64,000 bases of DNA from Patescibacteria group bacterium. Lineage in GTDB: Bacteria; Patescibacteriota; Minisyncoccia; UBA6257; HR35. A program made the translations under genes and the position numbers. Below are positions 4,984-58,517 of the stretch, in pieces. The notes below the pieces were generated by a model. That model worked only from the letters and a program-made list of their open reading frames with translations. It had not been told where the DNA came from and did not search any database. How positions within the stretch are numbered: the stretch's first letter is position 1; each line of letters opens with the position of its first letter. The DNA lies in NCBI GenBank assembly GCA_030549845.1, contig JAUQQN010000001.1, forward strand, positions 6,879-70,878, in the 5' to 3' direction.

Positions 4984-5694
4984 TCAAATTAAAATGTTAT
5001 CTGCTATAAATTGTGGATATGTTTTATGAAAGCTATGTCCCCCTTGAGGACAAATTATTAATTTTGAATTTTTAATCAATTTATTGATTATATAAGCATT
5101 TTTTAGAGGTGTGATTTTGTCTTTTTTACCCCAAATTAATATCGTTTCTGTTTTTATTTCAGGCAAAATAGGAGTTAAATCTTCAGAAATTACATTTTGC
5201 ATTGTTTTTTGCATAATAGGGGGAAGTTTTAAGTAATCAGTAGAACCAGTAAAAATTTTATAAAAAACCTTTTTGCAAAAAGGTGAAAGAGTAAAAAGAG
5301 TTTTTCCTAAGGGTTTAAATATACTAAGTATTTTTTGTATTAATGATTTTTTCCTAACACAAGCTCCATTGTATATTATTAATTTTTCCACTTTTTCTGG
5401 ATAAAGATAAGTAAATTTACAAGCTATCTGCCCGCCGAATGAATGCCCCATTAAATAAAATTTATCTATTCCCTTCTCTTCTAGGTATTTTTTCACATAC
5501 TCTACATAATCATCTAAAGTAAATGGCCTTTCAAGCTCTTTATTACTACTAAATCCTGGCAAAATAATAAATTCAACATCAAATTTTTCTTTTAAGCAGT
5601 TAACTAATTCTTTATAAAAATCAAAAATATTTTCTTCTCTATTAATAATATATTTATTTATCCATCCATGCAAAAAAACCAACTTCTTTTTCAT
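4984..5694 (-). CDS. Alpha/beta-fold hydrolase
   Basis: GHSFGG nucleophile elbow (GxSxG), later HSFH. Confidence 0.7.
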   Translation of the reverse strand: MKKKLVFLHGWINKYIINREENIFDFYKELVNCLKEKFDVEFIILPGFSSNKELERPFTLDDYVEYVKKYLEEKGIDKFYLMGHSFGGQIACKFTYLYPEKVEKLIIYNGACVRKKSLIQKILSIFKPLGKTLFTLSPFCKKVFYKIFTGSTDYLKLPPIMQKTMQNVISEDLTPILPEIKTETILIWGKKDKITPLKNAYIINKLIKNSKLIICPQGGHSFHKTYPQFIADNILI

Positions 5695-5707
5695 CTTACC
5701 TTAATTG

Positions 5708-5737
5708 AACAAATAATTCCGTACGGAACTATTTGTT
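5708..5737. repeat. 30-bp palindromic repeat AACAAATAATTCCGTACGGAACTATTTGTT (family P2, copy 1)
   Basis: Near-perfect palindrome with CCGTACGG centre; exact reverse complement of copy 2 at 6484-6513. Confidence 0.8.
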
Positions 5738-5747
5738 TAATTATGAT

Positions 5748-6434: not shown

Positions 6435-6483
6435 CCTAAATGGTAAAATTATAAAATAAAAAATTAAAAAATAAATTAATTTA

Positions 6484-6513
6484 ACAAATAGTTCCGTACG
6501 GAATTATTTGTTT
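6484..6513. repeat. 30-bp palindromic repeat, family P2 copy 2 (inverted relative to copy 1)
   Basis: AACAAATAGTTCCGTACGGAATTATTTGTT; lies in the divergent spacer between the PaaX-like gene and recG. Confidence 0.8.
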
Positions 6514-6532
6514 TATAAAAGAAGGAAGAAAA

Positions 6533-20523: not shown

Positions 20524-20597
20524 TCTTAAAATTATAAAACTATTTAATTATAACCCTAATAACTTTATTATCCTACATTATAAAATTTTGGTAATAT

Positions 20598-20624
20598 AAT
20601 TTTGGTAATCAGATTACGAAAATT
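20598..20624. repeat. P1 palindrome copy A (TTTTGGTAATCAGATTACGAAAA)
   Basis: Perfect inverted repeat 11+1+11; ~80 bp upstream of the efflux operon start and downstream of the GxxExxY gene. Confidence 0.9.
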
Positions 20625-20686
20625 CGTAAATAATTATTATCTAGAAACGATCAATTTCTATACTCAAGTTACAAAAATATAAGTTT

Positions 20687-21154
20687 TTAATCATTATGAT
20701 TCTCTAATTTTATTTCTGCAATTTTTAGACCTTTATAATTTTTCACCTCTGCCTTCAGTTGTCCTGATGGTTTTGTAAAATTAAAAACAAAACCTATTGG
20801 ATAAAGTTCTTCGTTATCTTTTAATTCCTTTCTTAGTTCTTGCATATACCTTTCAACTTGTTTTTGGCTATCGATCTTAAGCTCAGAAATAGACTTTAAC
20901 TCAATAATTATCGCGATTTTTTTCTTTCCTTTTGTATACCAAACTATTAAGTCAGGGGCTCCTCTTCCAACAACATAACCATTAAAAGTTATAGGTAATG
21001 TTCTTTGAGCTTCATATTTTATTCCTTTCTCTCTTAAAGCTACTTCCATTGCTTTTTGATAAATATCTTCTTCCCAGCCTGCGCCTAATTCCTCATAAAC
21101 CCTTGCTGCACATTCTTTCAATTCATTTATTAATTCTTTAATCCCTTTCTCCAT
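20687..21154 (-). CDS. GxxExxY-family protein (PD-(D/E)XK nuclease-like)
   Basis: GWEEDIY signature near N-terminus, ~155 aa as for TIGR04256-type proteins. Confidence 0.65.
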   Translation of the reverse strand: MEKGIKELINELKECAARVYEELGAGWEEDIYQKAMEVALREKGIKYEAQRTLPITFNGYVVGRGAPDLIVWYTKGKKKIAIIIELKSISELKIDSQKQVERYMQELRKELKDNEELYPIGFVFNFTKPSGQLKAEVKNYKGLKIAEIKLENHND

Positions 21155-21294
21155 TTTTTTATTTTTTAAATTAATCCTTCAATCTTTCTACTTTGCTTTT
21201 TTTAATAATCTTTTAATAATTTATACTTTTTCTTATTTTCGTATGATTTTTAAACCAAATCAGTAATTTTTATTGGATGAATTTTTGAAACAAT

Positions 21295-21317
21295 TTTGGT
21301 AATCAGATTACGAAAAT
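21295..21317. repeat. P1 palindrome copy B
   Basis: CAATTTTGGTAATCAGATTACGAAAAT; promoter-proximal to the GxxExxY gene. Confidence 0.9.
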
Positions 21318-21365
21318 GATTAATTCCTGACTTTTTTAAATAATTACTGGAATATTTAATTGCTT

Positions 21366-21409: not shown

Positions 21410-21436
21410 TTTTAGGTTGGCAGATAGAAAAACAAT

Positions 21437-21459
21437 TTTGGTAATCAGATTACGAAAAT
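21437..21459. repeat. P1 palindrome copy C
   Basis: TTTTGGTAATCAGATTACGAAAATACGTAAATAAT, same extended flank as copy A. Confidence 0.9.
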
Positions 21460-21508
21460 ACGTAAATAATGTTATATTGCTAAAAAGAAAGTTATTAGTT
21501 GTTAGCTT

Positions 21509-25146: not shown

Positions 25147-26166
25147 ATGGGAAATTTTGAAAGACAATTTATTTCAGGACAAAAAAGACAGGAACGAAAA
25201 AAATCAGAAATAAAAATTACACCAGAACAAAAAGAAATTTTAGAATCTGCAGTAAAATTTGCTGAATATATAGTATCTCGTTTCCCTCAGATTGATGAAA
25301 ATCGTAGGATAATAATTGAAGTCAGTGAAGAAGGGCCTACTGTCGAACTTCCCGAGATGCCGGAATTCATAGAAACAGTATTGATGATGTTGAATTACTA
25401 TTTTTCCGGTTCTTTAGCTACAATGCTTTTATCGATGGCTGAGCAATTTACTGAAATAGATGAAAGCGAACTGCCTGGCATAAAAGAAGGTCAAACCCGT
25501 ACTATTCCAGAAAGTGCGCGAGAAATCTTAGCAACTTTTGCACGCCCTATAGGAGATTTAGATTATGTTCCTACAGATTTCTATGAAGGGAAAAGAGCAC
25601 ATGTTAGAAGTCTTTATGGAAAAGTAAGTAGTGAAGAATATCAAAAATTGTGCGCTAAGTTTTTGTGGAAAGGTGGTAGTATAGGGTTTGATGAAATTCC
25701 GGAGGAAGCATCTAAATGTCTTAAACGAGAAGCAACACAATTGAGAATATTCGTTGATCCTCTTGAATGTTATGGCGTGAAACGAGTTGCAAAAATTGTG
25801 GTTGCTGGAAAAGAATATTTCATAGCGAGACCGGATGCTATGTTTGCTTATAAAGTTTTACATTTGTTGCAAGCGTATGAACAAAAGCCGGAAAAATTTA
25901 ACGCTGATTTTAGTAAATTGTTTTCAGCTATGAAGGAAATTTACAGTGAAGACGAATTACTACAAACAGTTTTTCAAGTTCTTAAGGATTATGAAAATGC
26001 TATGGAAGCTTCTCATCGCAGATGGCATGAAGCCCTAGGTTATGAAAAGCCATACAAATCCGAAATCCCGGCTTTTTGTAAAAAAATTTTAGGCAATCCA
26101 AGCATTACACCCGAGATTAGATATGTTATTGAAGAAATTCAAAAAAAATTTACCGTCAAAGAATAA
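25147..26166 (+). CDS. Hypothetical protein with locally elevated GC content (cassette-like, flanked by P1 copies F and G)
   Basis: 339 aa, no recognisable motif; visibly more G/C-containing codons than neighbours (e.g. GAAGGGCCTACTGTCGAACTTCCCGAGATGCCGGAATTC). Confidence 0.5.
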   Translation: MGNFERQFISGQKRQERKKSEIKITPEQKEILESAVKFAEYIVSRFPQIDENRRIIIEVSEEGPTVELPEMPEFIETVLMMLNYYFSGSLATMLLSMAEQFTEIDESELPGIKEGQTRTIPESAREILATFARPIGDLDYVPTDFYEGKRAHVRSLYGKVSSEEYQKLCAKFLWKGGSIGFDEIPEEASKCLKREATQLRIFVDPLECYGVKRVAKIVVAGKEYFIARPDAMFAYKVLHLLQAYEQKPEKFNADFSKLFSAMKEIYSEDELLQTVFQVLKDYENAMEASHRRWHEALGYEKPYKSEIPAFCKKILGNPSITPEIRYVIEEIQKKFTVKE

Positions 26167-26202
26167 AATCTTACATATCCTTCAGCCACCAAAAATCTAC
26201 AG

Positions 26203-26225
26203 TTTTCGTAATCAGATTACGAAAA
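26203..26225. repeat. P1 palindrome copy G
   Basis: TTTTCGTAATCAGATTACGAAAA, perfect; sits between convergent gene ends. Confidence 0.9.
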
Positions 26226-26273
26226 TTTATTGTAATTGTAAGTAGTTTTAAAAATAAATTTTTTGTATAAAAT

Positions 26274-27539: not shown

Positions 27540-27654
27540 AATTTGATTAATTTAACAAATTGCTAATCTTTTATGAAAATTATATCAAGTTGCAAATTAA
27601 AAAGGTATAATAAATAAGCTAAAATGAAGAATGAATAATTACAAAATCCTACAG

Positions 27655-27677
27655 TTTTCGTAATCAGATTACGAAAA
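27655..27677. repeat. P1 palindrome copy H
   Basis: ACAGTTTTCGTAATCAGATTACGAAAATTTATT; flank identical to copy G over ~35 nt. Confidence 0.9.
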
Positions 27678-27954
27678 TTTATTAGGTTATAAATGGAGAG
27701 AACAAAATAAAAAGCAACTAAAAAAGCAAAGATAATTAAAATGAAAATAATCTTTAGGTTTTAGAACCAAGAAAATTAACTTAGGACTAGTTTTATATTC
27801 TGGAGTAAAGTAAATTTGAACAATAAGAAAAAGAGAAAAAGAATAAAATTAAAACAATTAAAAAAGCTAAATATATTGGTTTTCGCAAAGGCTTTATAAA
27901 TATTTGAACATCCATTCAAATATTATAAATTAAAAAAATTTTTCTTATCAAGTT

Positions 27955-30243
27955 TTATTTTAATCTCAAAGCATTTAAAGCAACGATTATTGTGGATAAA
28001 CTCATAAAAATTGCACCTAAAGCTGGAGAGAGTAAAATTCCTTTAAAAGCTAAAATTCCAGCAGCAAGAGGAAGAGCAATAATGTTATAACCAGTTGCCC
28101 AAAATAAATTTTCTATCATTTTTTGATAAGTTTTTCTTGAAAGTTCAATTATTTTGACAATGTCTCTTGGATCATTCTTTACTAAAATTATTCCTGCAGA
28201 TTCAATGGCAACATTTGTTCCGGCGCCAATAGCAACTCCAACATCAGCTTGCATAAGTGCTGGCGTATCATTAATTCCATCACCAACCATCATTACTTTA
28301 AAGCCACGCTTTTGTAATTCTTTAACTTTATTTACTTTCTCTTCTGGTAAAACTTCAGCAAAATATTCATCAATGCCAAGCTCTTTTGAAACTTTCTCAG
28401 CAACTTCTTTTTTATCACCAGTTATCATTGAAACTTTAATGCCTAATTTATGAAGTCCCTTAACTGCTTCAAAAGATTCTTTTCTTATTTCATCTTCCAA
28501 AATAATTGCTCCTAAAATATTTTTCTCTTCAATTAAATAAACTATTGTTCCGATTTCAGATAAAAGTGGTTTTTCAATACCTAATTCTTTTAATAAATTA
28601 TCACCACCCAAATAATAAAGTTTACCACCAATTTTTCCCTTAACCCCTCTTCCAGGTAAATTTTCAAAATCTTCAACTTTTAAAAACTCTAATCCATCTT
28701 CTTTTGCCTTTTCCAAAATTCCTTGAGAGATAAAATGAGAAGAATATTGACTTAAAGAAGCTGCAAGTTGAAGGATTGTTAATTCTTGTGAACCTTCTCG
28801 CGAACTATTATGTGAATTTTCTCGAATATTAAATTGTCTTCCGAGGTTCGTTCCGGCGGAGGTATTTAATATCTTTTTCACTTTAAATTTTCCTGAAGTT
28901 AAGGTTCCAGTTTTATCAAATAAAACAATATCTATTTTTCTTGCAAATTCAAGCTGGAGTCTATTTCTAATTAAAAATCCATTATGAACTGCTAAAGATG
29001 TTGAAATAGCAGCAACAAGAGGAACAGCTAAACCTAAAGCATGAGGACAAGCAATAATCAAAATAGTAACTAATCTTTCTAAAGCAAAATCAAAATCTTT
29101 TTTAACTAAAAGCCAAAGAGTAAAACTTAAAAGACCAATAAAAATAGCGATAAATGTTAAATATTTTGCAAAAACATCAGCTAAAACCTGAAGTTTTGAT
29201 TTTGAAGCTTGGGCTTCTTTAATTAGTCTTTTGATACCTGCTAAAAATGTCTCTTCACCAATTTTTGTTACTTTAATTTTCAGCATTCCATCACCATTAA
29301 TTGTTCCAGCAATAACTTCTGAACCAACTTCTTTCAAAACTGGCTTACTTTCACCAGTAATCATACTTTCATTAACTTCTGATTTCCCTTCAATAACAAT
29401 TCCATCAGCGGGAATTTTTCCTCCTGGTCTTACTAAAACTATATCGCCTACTTTAATTTCTTCGAGTTTTATTATTTTTATTTCTTCTTTTTTATTAACA
29501 GAATCTTCTGCATTATCAAAGTCATCCTGCGAGCGAGAATCGGGTAGGCCGTGGGTAAATGTTTGATTTAATATTATTACTTCTGCTGTATCTGGTAATA
29601 ATTTCTCAATTTCTTGTAAAGCTCTCTGGGCTGAAGAAACTGATTTCATTTCAAAATAATGTCCTAAAAGCATAATCGTAATTAAACTTGTCAGTTCCCA
29701 GAAAAATTCATGTCCAATTTTAAATAAAACAGGAAAAACACTATAAACATATGCAGAAGATATGGCTAAACCAATTAAAGTCATCATCCCGGGATTTTTA
29801 GCCTTAAGTTCGCGATATGCACCAACAAGAAAAACAAAGCCACCATAGAAAAAAATAATTGAGCCAAGAATTAAAATCAAATATTGAATTCCCTCGAAAG
29901 ATGGCAATTTTATCCCAATAAATTTTTGAAAGACATCAGAATAAAGAATGATAGGAATAGTCAAAATTAAAGAAAGCCAAAATTTATTTAAAAAATCTTC
30001 AGCACGGTGGCCATGATGTTTATTTTGGGTCGCGAACTTCTGCGAACTTTCTCGCGAACTGATGTGAATACTACTTTCGCTAGAAACATCTTCAACTTCA
30101 ATGAGTTTCATTCCACAGACATGACAATTACCAGGCTTTTCCTGTGGTTCAATACACTGCATTGGGCAAATATATTTCTTCATTCTCAAAAATATTATAT
30201 CATAAAAATACCCCCAGGTGGTATATAGAGTTTTTAAAAACAC
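27955..30243 (-). CDS. copA: Copper-translocating P1B-type ATPase (CopA/CopB-like)
   Basis: N-terminal CPMQC...CHVCGMKL metal-binding motif, His-rich stretch HHGHRAED, TGES, CPH transmembrane metal site, DKTGTLT, GDGINDTPAL. The true start is probably the internal MKKYICPMQC. Confidence 0.85.
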   Translation of the reverse strand: MFLKTLYTTWGYFYDIIFLRMKKYICPMQCIEPQEKPGNCHVCGMKLIEVEDVSSESSIHISSRESSQKFATQNKHHGHRAEDFLNKFWLSLILTIPIILYSDVFQKFIGIKLPSFEGIQYLILILGSIIFFYGGFVFLVGAYRELKAKNPGMMTLIGLAISSAYVYSVFPVLFKIGHEFFWELTSLITIMLLGHYFEMKSVSSAQRALQEIEKLLPDTAEVIILNQTFTHGLPDSRSQDDFDNAEDSVNKKEEIKIIKLEEIKVGDIVLVRPGGKIPADGIVIEGKSEVNESMITGESKPVLKEVGSEVIAGTINGDGMLKIKVTKIGEETFLAGIKRLIKEAQASKSKLQVLADVFAKYLTFIAIFIGLLSFTLWLLVKKDFDFALERLVTILIIACPHALGLAVPLVAAISTSLAVHNGFLIRNRLQLEFARKIDIVLFDKTGTLTSGKFKVKKILNTSAGTNLGRQFNIRENSHNSSREGSQELTILQLAASLSQYSSHFISQGILEKAKEDGLEFLKVEDFENLPGRGVKGKIGGKLYYLGGDNLLKELGIEKPLLSEIGTIVYLIEEKNILGAIILEDEIRKESFEAVKGLHKLGIKVSMITGDKKEVAEKVSKELGIDEYFAEVLPEEKVNKVKELQKRGFKVMMVGDGINDTPALMQADVGVAIGAGTNVAIESAGIILVKNDPRDIVKIIELSRKTYQKMIENLFWATGYNIIALPLAAGILAFKGILLSPALGAIFMSLSTIIVALNALRLK

Positions 30244-30340
30244 TAAACTAAAATTTGAAAAAGAATGCTAAGTAAAATTAATAATAAAAAGGTTATTACT
30301 AGTCTTTGATAAGGAAAAGCCCTTCCCTGACGAAGTTGAC

Positions 30341-30796
30341 TTAATTTTTATTTAGCAAAGGTGAAATTAAAATAACCAAACCACCCAAAATTGAATCCAA
30401 CAAAAATTTATCATAAACATATGTTCGATTAAACAAACTTCCATAATCCCCAAATAAATATAAATAAAAAGAACCGATTTCATAGAAATAGAGCTTTAAA
30501 GGAAGAACAACGGAGAGAAAAGAAATTAAAATTAGTAGAAATTTTGCAAGGTTGGCGAGCGAGATTCGGGTAGGCCGTGGGCGAATGTTTGAGCCGAAGC
30601 GGAGCGGAGGCCAAACTGGCGCATCGAGTGAGCCAACTTGCAAAATATTAGAAAGCCACCATCCTAAAGCAACACTAAAAGCTCCTATCCAAACGCCAAT
30701 CGCTGATGATTTCATTCCTAATTCTCGTGCCAATAAAGCACCTATTTCAACTCCAATAGTACATAAAGGACAATGAGCAAAAGCAAAGATTGGCAA
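30341..30796 (-). CDS. Small membrane protein with N-terminal CxxC (HCPLC) motif, carrying a GC-rich in-frame insertion
   Basis: 151 aa, 3-4 TM; internal segment ...RFGSNIRPRPTRISLANLAKF is encoded by the GC-rich block at 30553-30640. Confidence 0.45.
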   Translation of the reverse strand: MPIFAFAHCPLCTIGVEIGALLARELGMKSSAIGVWIGAFSVALGWWLSNILQVGSLDAPVWPPLRFGSNIRPRPTRISLANLAKFLLILISFLSVVLPLKLYFYEIGSFYLYLFGDYGSLFNRTYVYDKFLLDSILGGLVILISPLLNKN

Positions 30797-30822
30797 AAAA
30801 AATTAAAACTATGATTATTATT

Positions 30823-31317
30823 TTATATTTCCATAAATAATCCTTGATCTTTACCATCTTTGACTGAATGAATTCTGAATGGATAAAATTTAATTCCTGG
30901 CATTCCCGGTGAACCAGAAGGCATTTCTGGAAGAGCAATGCCATTAATTTTTGGCTTTTCAGTTAAAAGTTTTTCAATTGCTTCAACTGGAATATGGCCT
31001 TCAACAAAATAATTGTTCAAAAAAACTGTATGACAAGACCATAAATTATAAGGAATATTATTTTGCCTCTTAATATTTTCAAGTTCTTCATCAGAAACTT
31101 CTCTAACTTCAACTTTAAAGCCATTTGCTTTTAAATAATTTGCGTATTGGGCACAACAATTGCAGTTAGGGGATTTATAAATAACTGCTGACATACCAGA
31201 AAATTTAGTTCGTTTTGAAGATTGATTTTTTATTAAAACCATAATTGACCCAACTAAAAGAAAACCTATTATTAACCCTAAAATTATACTTTTGTTTTTC
31301 ATTTTTATAATCCACAA
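30823..31317 (-). CDS. DUF411 / CopG-like periplasmic copper-resistance protein
   Basis: N-terminal TM anchor, CNCC motif, conserved His and Met-rich MPSGSPGMPG segment, typical of the DUF411 family found in cop loci. Confidence 0.65.
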   Translation of the reverse strand: MWIIKMKNKSIILGLIIGFLLVGSIMVLIKNQSSKRTKFSGMSAVIYKSPNCNCCAQYANYLKANGFKVEVREVSDEELENIKRQNNIPYNLWSCHTVFLNNYFVEGHIPVEAIEKLLTEKPKINGIALPEMPSGSPGMPGIKFYPFRIHSVKDGKDQGLFMEI

Positions 31318-32406: not shown

Positions 32407-32943
32407 TTATTTATTAATTCCTTCTTTTAATCTTTTGATTAAATAAATTATTCCCAAAATTAATAAGATTAAAACAAGTATTGGAACAACTAAAATAATT
32501 AACATCCAAAAAACACCGACAATCGCAAAAATAGGTGCAAAAATACTCCAACCTTTCCAATTAGAAAAATTCCACCATTCCCAATACCCCATCATTGGAC
32601 CCATCATCCAATTTGACCTACTATAACTAACTTCACAACCACTAAATCTTTTACCCATATTTATATGCATTTGTTCTTCAGCTTCTTTGCCATGCATTCT
32701 TTCCATCATTTGATTCATTAAAAGATGATCGCTTCCACCAACCATAAGTTCCATAGCATATTCACCAATTGCATGAAAATCTTCATTGGTTAAATCTTGA
32801 CAAGTAATTTTTCCTTGTTGCAATTTCTCAAAAAGTTCCTTTCCTTTTTGAATTTCAGCATTCAACTCAGCATCTTCACTGTGAGCAAAAGCAAAAGAAA
32901 TAACGACGAAAAATAATAAAATAATAATTAAAAGCTTTTTCAT
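32407..32943 (-). CDS. Met/His-rich putative periplasmic metal-binding protein with C-terminal membrane anchor
   Basis: Signal peptide; MNQMMERMHGKEAEEQMHINMG and MMGPMMGYWEWW segments; C-terminal TM helix. Confidence 0.4.
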   Translation of the reverse strand: MKKLLIIILLFFVVISFAFAHSEDAELNAEIQKGKELFEKLQQGKITCQDLTNEDFHAIGEYAMELMVGGSDHLLMNQMMERMHGKEAEEQMHINMGKRFSGCEVSYSRSNWMMGPMMGYWEWWNFSNWKGWSIFAPIFAIVGVFWMLIILVVPILVLILLILGIIYLIKRLKEGINK

Positions 32944-33206
32944 TTTCTTTTTGCTAATTTGAAAATTTTCAATAATTCTTTAATAGCGACCTCTTTTTTA
33001 TTTTTAAAATTTTTAGGAGCGCAAGTTCGAAAATGATTTTCTAAAATTAAATCCTCAATTCCCGATAGAGCATTTTTTATGGCCATTGATTGAATTAAAA
33101 TATCAATACAATATTTTTCATTTTCTATCATTTTCTTTAGCCCATCTAATTGACCTCTTACTATATTTAATCTTTTTAAAATTTTTCTTTTCAATTCTTT
33201 CTCCAT
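32940..33206 (-). CDS. csoR: CsoR/RcnR-family metal-sensing transcriptional repressor
   Basis: 88 aa; LNIVRGQLDGLKKMIENEKYCIDILIQSMAIKNAL...ENHFRTC carries the conserved Cys...His...Cys ligand pattern of CsoR (DUF156). Confidence 0.8.
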   Translation of the reverse strand: MEKELKRKILKRLNIVRGQLDGLKKMIENEKYCIDILIQSMAIKNALSGIEDLILENHFRTCAPKNFKNKKEVAIKELLKIFKLAKRK

Positions 33207-33287: not shown

Positions 33288-33641
33288 ATGAAAATAATTT
33301 ATACTATTGGGCATTCAACAAGAAAATTAGAAGAATTTATTGAGCTTTTAAAGAATTTTAAAATTGAAGTTTTAATAGACATTCGTCATTTTCCCCATTC
33401 AAAACATAATCCTCAATTTAACAAAGAAATTTTAGAAAAAGAATCACCGAAAGAAGGAATAGATTATCTTTGGCTTGAAGAACTTGGCGGATTTAGAAAG
33501 GGAGGTTACTTAGCTTACACTGAAACACAAGATTTTAAAGAAGGATTAAGAAAACTTACAAAAATTACTGAAGAAAAAGTAACCAATTTTCGTAATCAGA
33601 TTACGAAAATTTTAGGAATTCATTGCAATTTTAGGTTTTAA
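33288..33641 (+). CDS. DUF488-family protein, C-terminally truncated/replaced by a P1 palindrome copy
   Basis: N-terminus MKIIYTIGHSTRKLEEFIELLKNFKIEVLIDIRHFPHSKHNPQFNKE is canonical DUF488. The usual C-terminal ...CAE...CHR segment is absent; the last 17 codons are encoded by the P1 repeat (33587-33609) and its flank. Confidence 0.6.
   Translation: MKIIYTIGHSTRKLEEFIELLKNFKIEVLIDIRHFPHSKHNPQFNKEILEKESPKEGIDYLWLEELGGFRKGGYLAYTETQDFKEGLRKLTKITEEKVTNFRNQITKILGIHCNFRF
33587..33609. repeat. P1 palindrome copy I (inside the DUF488 3' end)
   Basis: CCAATTTTCGTAATCAGATTACGAAAATTTTAGG. Confidence 0.9.
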
Positions 33642-34719: not shown

Positions 34720-34755
34720 CTTAATAAAAAATAATTTTATAAAGATTTCTCAATT

Positions 34756-34777
34756 TTTGTAACCTGATTACGAAAAT
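34756..34777. repeat. P1 palindrome copy J (degenerate, ~40 bp upstream of gene start 34719)
   Basis: TTTTTGTAACCTGATTACGAAAA. Confidence 0.8.
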
Positions 34778-34933
34778 ATTAATTCATGGATTTCTTTTAT
34801 CTTAAGATGATATTCTTCTCATATAGTTTCTTTTAATTGAGGTGTTATCGTAATAAAAACTTTTGAATAAAAAAGACTAACAAATCCATCAAAAATTAAA
34901 ACCATTAACTGAGTAAAATTTTTATCCCTATTT

Positions 34934-35983
34934 TTATTGTCTCGGCACTGGGGTACAAACATTATTAACACATTTTATTCTAAATTGGCCAGTAAAACCC
35001 GTACAAAAATCAGGACATTCTCTTGAAGTATCAATAAATCTTTTATTTCCAAAAGCACATTTTTTTGTTTCTTTATCAACTCCGCAGGCACAATCAGCAT
35101 CAGTTTGGCAAAACATTTTACCTACTTCTGAAGGAAAACCTGGAAATTGTGATCCTGGCGGAAAACTAGGAAGTTCTGAAGTTTTCTTACAAGCTTTAAG
35201 ATCATTATCAGTGAAATTTGGTAAGCCTCCATCCATACCAAAATTAGTAAGCATAATTGATCTCTGCTGTATCCCTATTCTTTCTTTAAACATTACAAAA
35301 TAAATTGGTACTTCTCCTGAAAGCCAAAATTCATTTATTACTTTTTCATTTTCCATTACCCCTTCTTTTTTAAATTTAGCAACTTTAATCTTTTTACCTG
35401 ACTCCAAAGTTATTTCTTCTTCGCCAACAAAATTCCATTCAGAAAGATTAACTTTATATTCTTTTTCTAAATTCTCATTTGAAAATGCTACATCTGGTAA
35501 ACCACCAACAAATCCCTTCATAAATTTTTCTTTCAAGCATTGAGTGGGCATCCCCTTACCTTTTGCTAAATAAAGAGATTCCCCTGTTTCTTTATTAAAC
35601 ACCATAGCAAATATCATTCCTCCCATTAATTCGTCACTATCCATTTCAATTCCAACATATTCTTTACCACCAATCGGAAGAGAAATAAGTTTGACTAAAG
35701 CTTTAAAAATTCTTGGCGTCTCTTTACTACCCATTAAACTTACTCCATAACCTTCAAGCTTATATTCTAACCAAGCTTCTTTTTTAAACCCAATTCCTGG
35801 AATTATTTTAAAATTATCCCCTTCTACTTTGGGCACTTCATAACCTTCTGGCGCTTTATATCCACCAATTTCTGGAACTTGATAACTTCCTTTTTGTGAT
35901 TTTCCTTTAAGAACAAAAAATCCAATCACCATAACTAAAACCATTATCCCTACTAAAATAAAAAGTAAAAATTTTTTATCCAT
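34934..35983 (-). CDS. Secreted/anchored hypothetical protein with Cys-rich C-terminus
   Basis: N-terminal TM/signal (FLLFILVGIMVLVMVIGFFVL); C-terminal CQTDADCACG...CAFGNKRFIDTSRECPDFCTG...CVNNVCTP. Confidence 0.5.
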   Translation of the reverse strand: MDKKFLLFILVGIMVLVMVIGFFVLKGKSQKGSYQVPEIGGYKAPEGYEVPKVEGDNFKIIPGIGFKKEAWLEYKLEGYGVSLMGSKETPRIFKALVKLISLPIGGKEYVGIEMDSDELMGGMIFAMVFNKETGESLYLAKGKGMPTQCLKEKFMKGFVGGLPDVAFSNENLEKEYKVNLSEWNFVGEEEITLESGKKIKVAKFKKEGVMENEKVINEFWLSGEVPIYFVMFKERIGIQQRSIMLTNFGMDGGLPNFTDNDLKACKKTSELPSFPPGSQFPGFPSEVGKMFCQTDADCACGVDKETKKCAFGNKRFIDTSRECPDFCTGFTGQFRIKCVNNVCTPVPRQ

Positions 35984-36083: not shown

Positions 36084-36275
36084 TTATAAATTTTACATTT
36101 ACAATGCTATAGCATTTTAAATTTACAGCCCTTTCAGTAAGCATAGTTTTTTAAATGTGGGCTCATTTTTGAAGGTAGGCTAAGGATTTTAAATTTACAA
36201 TGCTATAGCATTTTAAATTTACAATTCTTTTTAAATAAGCATATTCTTCGAAGGTGGGTTAGAATTTTTCAGAAG
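36084..36275. repeat. Two ~96-bp tandem units, each with TTTAAATTTACA direct repeats flanking the palindrome AATGCTATAGCATT
   Basis: Palindromes at 36103-36116 and 36199-36212; unit tails share TAAGCATA...GAAGGT.GG.TA. Lies in a 560-bp spacer upstream of the 34934..35983 gene. Confidence 0.8.
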
Positions 36276-36543: not shown

Positions 36544-37230
36544 TCAACATCGAGAAAGGGTGCTTCGCCTAGAAGTGTGGTAAGGGTGAGTTTTAAGGGA
36601 TAGAAGAAAATTATTTAAATAATAAGTAAATGAGGAAATTATTGAAAAATTGTGTTGGTTAAGAAGATCTTCTAATTCTTTTTTTGAATAATATTTTCTT
36701 GCTGATTCTAAATTTTTTATTATTTTAAGAAGTAGTTTAAGATAAAAAACATCAGGCGAGGGATCAACTAATAAAAATAAACCATTATCTTTTAAAACTC
36801 TTCCTATTTCTTTTAAAGCTGAGTCTGGATTGTAGAAATGATGGAAAGTATCCACACAGATAACAAAATTAAAACTTCCCTCTTCAAAGGGTAAATTTTC
36901 AACATTAGCTTCAATAATTTTTGTATTATTTAGATTAAAAGTTTTGTTTATTGCTTTTTCAACCATACCTTTTGAGAAATCAACACCGAAGAATTCTACT
37001 TCTTTAAATTCTTTTGCTAATTTGAAAATAACTTCAGCTGTTCCACATCCAACATCTAAAAATTTGCTTTTAGGTTTTAAGTATCCATTTGTTTGATTTT
37101 TGATTACTTCGATTACTTTTTTATAAAGTTTTTCAAAATAAATTAATCTAAATATCGAAGAATCATAAAACCTTGACCACAAATCAAACTGTTTTTTATT
37201 TAAATTTTCAAATTCTTCTTTTGTCATCAA
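36544..37230 (-). CDS. Class I SAM-dependent methyltransferase
   Basis: LDVGCGTAEVIF motif I, DTFHHF; odd GC-richer C-terminal tail ...KTHPYHTSRRSTLSRC suggests the 3' end may be altered. Confidence 0.7.
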   Translation of the reverse strand: MMTKEEFENLNKKQFDLWSRFYDSSIFRLIYFEKLYKKVIEVIKNQTNGYLKPKSKFLDVGCGTAEVIFKLAKEFKEVEFFGVDFSKGMVEKAINKTFNLNNTKIIEANVENLPFEEGSFNFVICVDTFHHFYNPDSALKEIGRVLKDNGLFLLVDPSPDVFYLKLLLKIIKNLESARKYYSKKELEDLLNQHNFSIISSFTYYLNNFLLSLKTHPYHTSRRSTLSRC

Positions 37231-46186: not shown

Positions 46187-46215
46187 TAATTTAATTTTAT
46201 CACTTTTTAGGAAGG
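46173..46215. repeat. Mod promoter / 5' end 'box' (copy 2, the functional one)
   Basis: ATAATCTTGTCTCATTAATTTAATTTTATCACTTTTTAGGAAGG; includes the mod ATG (CAT at 46184-46186). Confidence 0.85.
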
Positions 46216-46220
46216 ATCAG

Positions 46221-46244
46221 TTTTTCGTAATCTGATTACGAAAA
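46221..46244. repeat. P1 palindrome copy K (42 bp upstream of the mod start)
   Basis: TTTTTCGTAATCTGATTACGAAAA. Confidence 0.85.
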
Positions 46245-46283
46245 GGTGTAAGTTATACAACTTATACCAAAATAAATAAAAAT

Positions 46284-50487: not shown

Positions 50488-50579
50488 TATTATAATAATT
50501 ATAGCATAGATAGTATAAAATTTAAAAATATCAGCTTTACTTCATACAACTTGCGCTTTAATTACACTATTTTTCTTAA

Positions 50580-50706
50580 CTTATTGGTACTTCTTTAATC
50601 CTTCCTTTTGAAAATAAAAATTTAATTTTAGGAACTTGGCAAAGGGTGGTTTTAGTTGAATTTAATGGACCACGAGAAAGAGAGATTTATATTAGAATTA
50701 TTTAAT
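50580..50706 (+). repeat. Duplicated 3' end (~125 bp) of yjbQ-like gene (gene remnant)
   Basis: Near-identical to 54500-54624 (...GGTACTTCTTTAAT[C/T]CTTCCTTTTGAAAATAAAAATTTAATTTTAGGAACTTGGCAAAGGGTGGTTTTAGTTGAATTTAATGGACCA[C/A]GAGAAAGAGAGATTTATATTAGAATTATTTAA). Confidence 0.85.
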
Positions 50707-54234: not shown

Positions 54235-54624
54235 ATGAAGATTTTGAAAATAAAAACAAATAAAGAAAAACAAATTTTAGACATAACGGGGGAGATTAAT
54301 AAATTATTACAAAATCAAAACAAAAATGAAGGCTTGATTTATCTTTTTTTACTTCATACAACCTGTGCTTTAACTACTGCTGATCTAGATCCAGGGGCAG
54401 ATTTAGATTATTTAAATGCTTTTGAAAAAATTGCTCCTAAATTAAAATATCGTCATCCACATAACCCAGCGCATTTTCCTGATCATTTTCTTTCTTCAGT
54501 TGTTGGTACTTCTTTAATTCTTCCTTTTGAAAATAAAAATTTAATTTTAGGAACTTGGCAAAGGGTGGTTTTAGTTGAATTTAATGGACCAAGAGAAAGA
54601 GAGATTTATATTAGAATTATTTAA
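54235..54624 (+). CDS. yjbQ: YjbQ/UPF0047-family protein
   Basis: LHTTCALTTADLDPGADLDYL ... HPHNPAHFP...LILPFENKNLILGTWQRVVLVEFNGPRER signature. Confidence 0.75.
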   Translation: MKILKIKTNKEKQILDITGEINKLLQNQNKNEGLIYLFLLHTTCALTTADLDPGADLDYLNAFEKIAPKLKYRHPHNPAHFPDHFLSSVVGTSLILPFENKNLILGTWQRVVLVEFNGPREREIYIRII

Positions 54625-55319
54625 TGAAAAAAGGTAATAAATTACTTGTATTTTTATCCTTAATTTTGGTGATTTTTATAATAATTTATTTTGCTAAAGA
54701 GATAAATAAAACGCCATCTAAACCACTAATTAAAAATTTAGAAAAATCTCAAAATATTGAAAAAATAAAAGAAAGAAAATTAGATTGGGCTTTATTATTA
54801 CCCGAAATAAAAGAAATAATTTCGCAAAGTTTAAAAATTCCATCTTCGACTTTAGAAGTAACAATTCATCAAGAAATTGATCTAAATAATGATAAAGTAA
54901 ATGAAGTTATTGTTGAAATATTAAACCCATATCATGGTGCAGTTGCCTTAGAACAGTATGCTATTTTTAAAATAGGAGAAAATAATAAACCAGAGTTTAT
55001 TAAATTAAAAGAAAAAAGTGGTGAGATACAAGAAGCAATGTTTTCACAAGGTGAAGGTGGAGCAGGAAGATATGGATTTAATTTTGGATTTTTACCAGAA
55101 AAACAAATTATATATAGACAAGCTTTTTCTGCTTATAATTCTCCAAGTGATTTCTGTAAAGTTGATGCCTATATTTATAAACCTTTATCTGGCTACTTTG
55201 AGTATGATGAAAATATCTCAAAGGATTTAACAAAAAAATATTGCAAAGAATTATGTGACTATATTTCTAAAATGGAAGGAATGGAAGAGTATTTTTCAAA
55301 TATTTGCAGCCAGTTTTAA
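54624..55319 (+). CDS. Hypothetical membrane-anchored protein
   Basis: N-terminal TM; no motif. Confidence 0.4.
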   Translation: MKKGNKLLVFLSLILVIFIIIYFAKEINKTPSKPLIKNLEKSQNIEKIKERKLDWALLLPEIKEIISQSLKIPSSTLEVTIHQEIDLNNDKVNEVIVEILNPYHGAVALEQYAIFKIGENNKPEFIKLKEKSGEIQEAMFSQGEGGAGRYGFNFGFLPEKQIIYRQAFSAYNSPSDFCKVDAYIYKPLSGYFEYDENISKDLTKKYCKELCDYISKMEGMEEYFSNICSQF

Positions 55320-58417: not shown

Positions 58418-58458
58418 AATCTACTAATCAATCCCTTTACTTCAAAAAATCTTCCTTA

Positions 58459-58488
58459 AACAAATAGTTCCGTACGGAATTATTTATT
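58459..58488. repeat. 30-bp palindromic repeat, family P2 copy 3
   Basis: AACAAATAGTTCCGTACGGAATTATTTATT between convergent genes. Confidence 0.8.
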
Positions 58489-58517
58489 ATAGAAAAAAGT
58501 GGAAGGTGGGGGAAAAA

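Follow-up and report, generated by a model that had tools for sequence, protein, structure and literature searches.

The Rickettsia palindromic elements (RPE), reportedly described by Ogata and colleagues in 2000, are the described system closest to the sequences reported here. Mobile GC clusters of yeast mitochondria occur in frame in var1, ribosomes skip over the 'byp' elements in Magnusiomyces mitochondria, and a LAGLIDADG homing-endonuclease gene is fused in frame to fungal mitochondrial rps3. RPE are also treated in a review of MITEs (miniature inverted-repeat transposable elements; PMC10969869), as are Correia, Nezha and ERIC, bacterial MITEs that land in frame (PMC10969869). We describe GC-rich in-frame patches at four sites, three in the copper ATPase gene copA and one in the adjacent membrane-protein gene, within a 64,000-nucleotide stretch of contig JAUQQN010000001.1 (assembly GCA_030549845.1), called the window below. 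The window has a base composition of 27.3% GC, and a database search placed its host as a Parcubacteria/Paceibacteria-type bacterium of the Candidate Phyla Radiation (CPR). We consider it likely that the patches are the remains of several short, GC-rich, palindromic mobile families that have inserted repeatedly into a few permissive surface loops of the copper pump and one loop of its neighbor in a Parcubacteria/Paceibacteria clade.

The elements resemble RPE in that both are ~100–150-nt units with a stable hairpin, are found in different frames and at all stages of decay, and lack a transposase of their own. The likeness is one of behavior, and the phylum is unrelated; because the host is a Parcubacteria-type CPR bacterium, the best-characterized family (family B, below) can be at most an RPE analogue. 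The elements also differ from RPE in being much GC-richer than their host, in their very low copy number as measured, in the crowding of several unrelated families into the same few loops, and in their construction: family A is the terminal repeat of a nuclease-gene cassette, and family B combines a conserved core with a copy-specific stem. With the yeast GC clusters and byps they share the character of short GC-rich palindromic mobile units in the coding sequence of an extremely AT-rich genome; those elements, however, are organellar and 30–55 nt long, and byps need not be in frame, whereas the elements here always are. In behavior the elements match RPE in kind and resemble the GC clusters of yeast mitochondria, while probably belonging to neither.

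The two genes that carry the patches belong to one operon:

27955..30183, minus strand: copA, encoding a 742-aa copper ATPase of P1B type that has an HMBD domain at its N terminus; its ATG is at 30183
30243..30857, minus strand: host gene 2, part of the cop operon, encoding a small membrane protein with a CPLC motif and without a Pfam family

CopA matches the Pfam families E1-E2_ATPase, Hydrolase and HMBD and the solved CopA 3RFU (2.9e-110), and an identical protein is encoded on a 302,595-bp NCBI contig. An earlier note on this DNA had proposed that all four patches, at ~55–65% GC, derive from one small selfish repeat that inserts in frame as RPE do. The composition holds for the patch in the membrane-protein gene (30538–30645 reaches 55–63% in 40–60-nt windows) and for 30027–30066 (~55%), less well for 29514–29566 (about 49–55%), and not for 28795–28860, which reaches only ~42%. 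The two 38-mers that it had singled out are both present, at 29529–29566 and at 30555–30592 (the second had been placed 2 nt too low). They match at 35/38 positions, as the quoted ~92% implies, with none of 100 shuffles yielding any match, and they are indeed translated in different frames, as NQTFTHGLPDSRS in copA and SNIRPRPTRISLA in the neighboring gene. Likewise, TTCTCGCGAACT is common to 28795–28806 and 30049–30060, CGAACT occurs three times inside 30030–30060, and the stretch shared by these two patches extends to 17 nt (GAACyTTCTCGCGAACT; chance expectation 0.05 matches). The idea of an in-frame, RPE-like selfish repeat was supported in every test run; the idea of a single repeat was not, as the patches fall into at least three families, which we call A, B and E.

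Relative to orthologues, the three copA patches are insertions: they face gaps in alignment with both 3RFU and HMA4. The database search gave many relatives at 55–95% identity, ranging from 664 to 964 aa; among the 57 of them that we aligned, the three sites are the main length-variable places. The modal lengths of the three compared segments, conserved flanks included, are 29, 27 and 37 aa; at least 8 extra residues are present in 18, 13 and 18 of the 57 relatives at sites 1, 2 and 3, respectively, and the extra sequences are of several unrelated classes. Distant orthologues and most close ones lack the segments found here, which are lineage-specific insertions.

30022..30090, minus strand: insert 1 (aa 32–54, DVSSESSIHISSRESSQKFATQN), in the linker from the metal-binding domain to the first membrane helix; the baseline linker in relatives is 25–30 aa and H/K/E-rich, and it is expanded in 18/57
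29485..29568, minus strand: insert 2 (aa 206–233, NQTFTHGLPDSRSQDDFDNAEDSVNKKE), at the start of the A-domain; the baseline is a 27-aa stretch, KLLPD..AELENGKIVSLNELKVGDIVL, expanded in 13/57
28786..28866, minus strand: insert 3 (aa 440–466, NTSAGTNLGRQFNIRENSHNSSREGSQ), in the N-domain, 17 residues past DKTGT; the baseline is 37 aa, expanded in 18/57, by as much as 270 aa where an entire nuclease gene is present

An AlphaFold model built on the CopA alignment contains five low-confidence segments. The three long ones with pLDDT < 50, at residues 32–58, 207–232 and 443–463, are the three inserts, as expected from the earlier placement of the patches in loops. Each is flanked by well-predicted secondary structure; residues 207–232, for example, lie between strands E199–205 and E233–239. 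As with RPE, insertion is in frame and compatible with the protein fold: all 4/4 window inserts keep the frame, and those in copA fall in pLDDT < 50 loops.

Comparison at the nucleotide level made the origin of the patches apparent. We aligned the window with the DNA of three copA orthologues from other assemblies, L001 (89% protein identity), L002 (80%) and L003 (93%), and found clean indels at every site among the four genes. At the A-domain site, L001 carries a complete family B element of ~110 nt; the window and L003 have lost the 5′ 48 nt of that element, and the L003 copy has a 21-nt hairpin (GCCTGCCTGTCGGGCAGACAG) newly nested in it. L002 instead carries, at this very nucleotide position, a 558-nt insertion that encodes an entire PD-(D/E)XK nuclease domain. 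Each of the four orthologues holds one or two AGTTCGCGAGAAGGTTCGCA units at the N-domain site, and the window and L003 hold an extra 36 nt. This four-way comparison shows that the window patches are remnants of longer elements from several families; the copA patches are deletion remnants, not whole units. More broadly, orthologues of 65–95% identity have no insert, other elements in the same loops or longer versions, and even those 80–95% identical vary in the presence and extent of each insert.

The intact element in the membrane-protein gene defines family B:

30541–30646, minus strand: intact family B element, 106 nt, with arms at 30541–30556 (16 nt) and 30632–30646 (15 nt) and a 75-nt core at 30557–30631
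29515..29566, minus strand: family B remnant in copA, with ~36 nt of the 3′ part of the core and the stem arm on the 3′ side, GCAGGATGACTTTGAT; a deletion has removed the 5′ 48 nt

The intact copy has a 15-bp stem with one 1-nt bulge and folds as the strong hairpin that the earlier note had suggested looking for (−43.3 kcal/mol, z = −3.8, on the plus strand; −32.2, z = −3.4, on the minus strand), far stabler than shuffled controls on either strand. A covariance model of six family B copies (R1), searched against the window and the loci fetched from other assemblies, scored 30541–30646 at 137 bits and the copA remnant at 21.8 bits (E = 0.0077). Of the family B copies obtained by exact-pattern scans of genome, metagenome and viral collections and by R1 on the fetched loci, nine were tabulated. 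Seven of the nine are intact, and the settings are four: copA, the membrane-protein gene, a gene for a RumA-like methyltransferase and intergenic DNA. All copies obtained are from Paceibacteria-type assemblies:

L001: full family B element at the copA A-site; remnants there in the window, L003 and L015
L005, L016, L017, L019: family B in the orthologous membrane-gene loop, sense
L018 (P0134): family B in the membrane-gene loop, antisense, using the sole open antisense frame
L008, L009: family B in a RumA-like methyltransferase gene
L004, L010: family B in a GC-rich intergenic cluster

No family B copy was found in viral contigs by the exact-pattern scan. Matches in the Actinoplanes loci L006 and L007 and in L012 were set aside as chance in ~70% GC DNA. 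A peptide query made by joining family B's four translated frames, an uninformative design, gave no match at E up to 1.

The family B hairpin is conserved as a structure, as in RPE: besides the fold of 30541–30646, the 15 stem pairs are kept through two-sided changes. All 15 outer-stem pairs vary on both sides between copies, the inner helix has 2 compensatory pairs, and 92.8% of stem cells are paired, against 29–43.5% in slid controls. The core (75–79 nt) is conserved and the stem is copy-specific. Five copies have a common GC-rich stem (AGCTCGCGAnTCGGC / GCCGAnnTCGCTCGCT); the stems in the window, L005 and L001 are unrelated to it and AT-richer, yet they are still paired, with the bulge 5–6 nt from the core. 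The copy in L019 has decayed to 35% GC with its frame intact. The elements are repeated, polymorphic between orthologues, used in several frames and both orientations, hairpin-shaped, located in loops and decaying.

Could the 38-nt match in the window have arisen without any mobile element, through local templated repair or gene conversion, with the other patches as slippage expansions of loops? The two family B copies of the window do lie within 1.1 kb of each other, and the tandem 11–12-nt repeat of family A could grow by slippage. Against such local events, other genomes have the same core in a gene for a RumA-like methyltransferase and between genes, and at three different host sites inverted pairs of family A arrays enclose a nuclease gene. 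Moreover, the whole ~110-nt element at the copA site of L001 identifies the 38 nt of the window as a deletion remnant, not a short local copy. This explanation is largely refuted, and we regard it as highly improbable.

The same insertion sites bear on whether the inserts are modules selected by the host, perhaps linkers that are flexible or bind metal and tune the copper pump. Inserts are concentrated in genes of the cop locus, with a density of GC-rich patches of 28–141 nt/kb inside copA versus 9–14 nt/kb outside in 4/6 loci, and the N-terminal linker is naturally His-rich. However, one nucleotide element read in different frames and orientations gives unrelated peptides, the peptides show no enrichment of Cys, His or Met, close orthologues lack the inserts, and the inserts are predicted to be disordered. 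In the membrane protein, the intact window element occupies a single loop, of five residues at baseline (KKKIN), in which relatives carry many different inserts: family B in three sense frames and once in antisense, and at least two other elements in either orientation. Such use of several frames and both orientations fits a frame-filtered DNA parasite rather than a protein module, and selection by the host is a very unlikely source of the inserts. Their concentration in copA may reflect the tolerance of a non-essential gene, or targeting.

Two of the three copA patches contain family A, arrays of 11–12-nt GTTCGCGAGAA units (window 30029–60 and 28786–830):

30029..30060, minus strand: family A array with three GTTCGC units on the coding strand, AGTTCGCGAGAA AGTTCGCAGA AGTTCGCGAC
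28786..28830, minus strand: two family A units, one degenerate, AATATTCGAGAAAATTCACATAAT and AGTTCGCGAGAAGGTTCACAA

At the place equivalent to the second array, the AGTTCGCGAGArGGTTCGCA unit is intact in L001 and L002, in one or two copies. The first array is nearly identical over ~32 nt (counted by eye) to the right-end cassette array of L002 and L005, with which it has an exact 20-mer in common, AGTTCGCGAGAAAGTTCGCA. In those loci the order is left GCGAAC units, a GxxExxY reading frame and ~10 right GTTCGC units, all in frame with copA; the gene belongs to the GxxExxY family (TIGR04256, 2.7e-33; PF13366). The window copA retains arrays alone (30029–30060 and 28786–28830), with no nuclease frame. 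The two patches are terminal repeats of a nuclease-gene cassette. Related structures occur at several sites:

L002 10595–11160 and L005 2290–2830: family A cassette with nuclease gene, copA A-site
L010 3330–3800: family A cassette, in frame in a transketolase gene
L013 7200–7930: nuclease cassette with a different unit (ACGCGGA / ATCCGCGT), copA N-site
L014: arrays without a nuclease gene, copA N-domain site

In L014 (5884–5965) and L015 (5884–5953), GTTCGC/GCGAAC arrays of family A type are found immediately upstream of copA's start codon as well, indicating that the arrays are not confined to coding sequence. The only family A match in viral contigs, L020, was discarded as chance in 65% GC DNA. 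The likely driver of family A would be the GxxExxY PD-(D/E)XK nuclease gene, flanked by the arrays as inverted repeats in a homing-type cassette, of which the window would keep only the terminal arrays.

A search of the cassette protein against 1.84 billion representatives gave 7399 matches. Among the closest ~50, which we inspected, most are internal domains of proteins of 225–907 aa; more distant nuclease relatives are free-standing proteins of ~130 aa. Pfam analysis of 55 cassette-bearing proteins (from the set P0170–P0297) identified the hosts as RecG, EF-Tu-family GTPases including LepA, GT1/GT4 and GT2 glycosyltransferases, transketolase, GatB, Wzy and RtcB, and P-type ATPases are hosts as well. 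The insertion points recur: the RecG cassette always lies between DEQHRFG and PHxLSMTATPIPRT, and the LepA cassette between GITIK..PVRM and LNLIDTPGH. The flanking peptides, of T-x-T-D/N-A-D/E type on the left and R-K/E-S-A type on the right, are the translated inverted nucleotide arrays.

In these cassettes, an in-frame nuclease beside conserved motifs, at a recurrent site and in many lineages, is reminiscent of inteins and fused homing endonucleases. The cassettes differ in having no Hint or splicing domain, in using a GxxExxY/PDDEXK_3 nuclease and in being bounded by inverted 11–12-nt repeat arrays. The repeat-encoded peptide is 15–40 aa per side, which leaves no room for an intein splicing domain, and it has no conserved Cys, Ser, Thr or His-Asn; no Hint family is among 25 of the 44 Pfam families matched by P0004, P0041 and the 55 cassette-bearing proteins. 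We rejected an intein, finding neither a Hint domain among those families nor a conserved junction nucleophile or His-Asn. PDDEXK_3 is given as of unknown function in a survey of the superfamily (PMC3424549), and our literature search found no description of GxxExxY cassettes or of in-frame palindromic elements in CPR.

The window itself encodes a free-standing GxxExxY/PDDEXK_3 protein of 155 aa (20687–21154, minus strand; Pfam 9.7e-23, TIGR04256 2e-18), ~7 kb from copA. This gene has no GC-rich arrays; it is flanked instead by an AT-rich palindrome, TTTTCGTAATCAGATTACGAAAAT. The 24-nt palindrome, perfect or nearly so, has at least 8 intergenic copies, including copies on either side of the cop operon region, and may serve as an operator or terminator or represent a further repeat family:

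20593–20634, 21287–21328, 21429–21470 and 26196–26237: copies of TTTTCGTAATCAGATTACGAAAAT
27628–27682, 33560–33614, 34727–34781 and 46215–46256: copies of TTTTCGTAATCAGATTACGAAAAT

The remainder of insert 3 belongs to a third family:

28831..28866, minus strand: family E fragment, the 3′ end of another hairpin element, AATACCTCCGCCGGAACGAACCTCGGAAGACAATTT

It matches the 3′ end of a ~95-nt element in the copA of L015 (..CCTCCGCCGGAACGAGTCTCGGGGAACA), and P0005 has the matching peptide ASAGTSFGRH. The window and L003 share this fragment, and neither L001 nor L002 has it. The likeness of the copA patch peptide DSRSQ to SRESSQ and SREGSQ, formerly read as a sign of common origin, is not evidence of it, because the patches are not one repeat. 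The very short hairpin GCCTGCCTGTCGGGCAGACAG, encoding peptides such as PACLSGRQ and SAEQAG, is nested in other elements (L003, P0002, P0127 and P0137); in L003 its place in the copA A-site aligns to window ~29541. It looks like a further, still smaller mobile palindrome.

How does the cell deal with such inserts? All four window inserts, and every insert in relatives, preserve the frame and contain no stop codon, and remnants that can no longer fold (z ~0) are still held in frame. Because all inserts keep the frame, the unfoldable remnants included, we infer that they are translated rather than removed. Insertions would survive only where they leave the reading frame open and where a disordered loop can be accommodated by the protein; the elements would then be translated as disordered loop extensions in whichever frame and orientation is open, and would afterwards erode through in-frame deletions, nested insertions and AT-biased mutation.

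The alternative that elements are excised before or during translation (as an intron-like sequence, an RNase-processed hairpin or by ribosomal bypassing like that of the Magnusiomyces byps), leaving host proteins unexpanded, draws on several features. The conserved stem joins the ends of family B, with the bulge at a fixed distance from the core; the sole two one-sided stem changes yield G-U on the sense strand; in-gene copies are sense-oriented with one exception; and nuclease cassettes adjoin catalytic motifs (DKTGT; RecG DEQH), where a 130–190-aa insert might be harmful. Yet frame maintenance and the lack of stops would be unnecessary if the elements were excised, and 4/4 in frame has P ~0.01 in the absence of selection on frame. 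An antisense copy exists, in the one open frame, and truncated, unfoldable remnants are in frame too. The sense bias is expected from selection alone, because three sense frames are open and only one antisense frame. Rfam, which does not include RPE, gave no credible match even at E = 10, the only hit in 30480–30700 being a chance long non-coding RNA match of 11 bits; at the gathering threshold of Rfam 15, tRNA-Ser was the sole match in the whole window. A bulge-helix-bulge intron was rejected, since the stem has one 1-nt bulge and not two 3-nt bulges. We consider excision unlikely.

Several observations weigh against a history of repeated mobile insertion, or limit how far it can be taken. 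The outer stem differs by ~40–70% between family B copies and the core by ~5%; with the stem so much more divergent than the core, simple decay of one element is no explanation. Possible causes are that copies enter hairpins already present, that each insertion rebuilds the stem, that template switching corrects quasi-palindromes, or that selection acts on a single-stranded hairpin. Family B is represented in the 64-kb window by two copies, confined to the cop locus, and exact-pattern scans of 596 Gb of genomes plus a metagenome set gave ~4 independent family B sites. The flanks of the nine copies share 3–5-nt AT-rich runs that are indistinguishable from chance at 27% GC, and hold no convincing target-site duplication. 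No transposase was seen beside the elements in any fetched locus, no partner enzyme for family B was found, and no filled/empty allele pair was found inside one population. Most relatives were found by protein search, which favors intact reading frames, and the case for translation of the inserts consists in frame maintenance.

Some of these points also separate the elements from MITEs, with which they share being non-autonomous, having terminal inverted repeats and being occasionally translated within a host protein. Family B ends vary between copies while the core is conserved, and neither a convincing target-site duplication nor a matching insertion-sequence (IS) transposase was found. Conserved terminal inverted repeats are absent, and no parent IS with the same ends was seen in the fetched loci; family A flanks a nuclease and not a transposase. 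Two further candidates were rejected: a diversity-generating retroelement, as the 38-mer mismatches (A/T, T/C and A/G) are not adenine-specific, and an attC-like site, as the ends have no R-box. No reverse transcriptase was seen among the Pfam-scanned neighbor genes.

For the origin of the family A patches we offer a more tentative reading, whose parts are proposed jointly and in which our confidence falls somewhat short of even. The patches may be footprints of an undescribed selfish gene, a GxxExxY nuclease cassette bounded by inverted 11–12-nt arrays. This cassette would home to loops beside the best-conserved motifs of housekeeping proteins (DKTGT of P-type ATPases, RecG DEQH, the LepA G-domain, GatB, RtcB, transketolase and glycosyltransferases) and, being intein-less, would be either tolerated as a 130–190-aa domain or removed by a novel mechanism. 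Hairpin-only derivatives and solo arrays, such as those in the window, would be its MITE-like debris, and family B may move by a hairpin-dependent route that rebuilds the stem at each insertion.

The copper operon, on the minus strand of the window, comprises csoR, two genes without assigned function, a DUF411 gene, the CPLC-motif membrane gene and copA.

32940–33206, minus strand: csoR, cop operon
30823–31317, minus strand: DUF411 gene, cop operon

Judged against an intact homologue (P0121, 204 aa, 90% identical), the membrane-protein gene (30243–30857) is broken twice by a 1-nt frameshift, once at a T8 run near 30790 and once at an A5 run near 30345; these reflect either homopolymer sequencing error or early pseudogenization. 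The frameshifts are the one feature that might suggest that the patches arose in assembly or binning, for instance through chimeric reads from an organism of higher GC. The same inserts recur in independent assemblies (P0002, P0003 and P0121) and are therefore not assembly artefacts; identical or near-identical inserts lie at the same positions in independent NCBI, JGI, ENA and Logan assemblies, making an artefact exceedingly improbable.

Elsewhere in the window, the GC-richer tail of the S-adenosylmethionine (SAM) methyltransferase gene, which the earlier note had tentatively grouped with the patches, has no similarity to families A, B or E. This tail (36551–36590) comprises the GC-rich last 15 codons, encodes ..THPYHTSRRSTLSRC* and holds a direct repeat, AAGGGTG x2. 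At 36089–36230, between the methyltransferase gene and the gene at 34934–35983, an intergenic 45-nt unit with an internal palindrome (ATTTTAmATTTACAATGCTATAGCATTTTAAATTTACA) occurs twice. The GC-richer stretches of the open reading frame at 25147–26166 resemble ordinary coding sequence, and the fetched loci offered no homologue for comparison. A second intergenic palindrome, AACAAATAGTTCCGTACGGAATTATTTGTT, has three copies (5693–5745, 6468–6520 and 58444–58496), and a 142-nt direct repeat of 94% identity lies at 50565–50706 and 54484–54625, 3.9 kb apart.

CPR proteins are often remarked on for unexplained insertions. Our findings extend selfish DNA inside reading frames, best documented in Rickettsia, to the Candidate Phyla Radiation. 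Annotators of CPR proteins may find that loops that are GC-rich and of low confidence are debris of mobile elements and not functional domains. GxxExxY/PDDEXK_3 is a large family, and our observations suggest that it supplies the nuclease for a homing cassette that lacks an intein, sits in frame and targets conserved genes. They raise the question of how essential enzymes tolerate, or shed, a whole nuclease domain beside their catalytic motifs.

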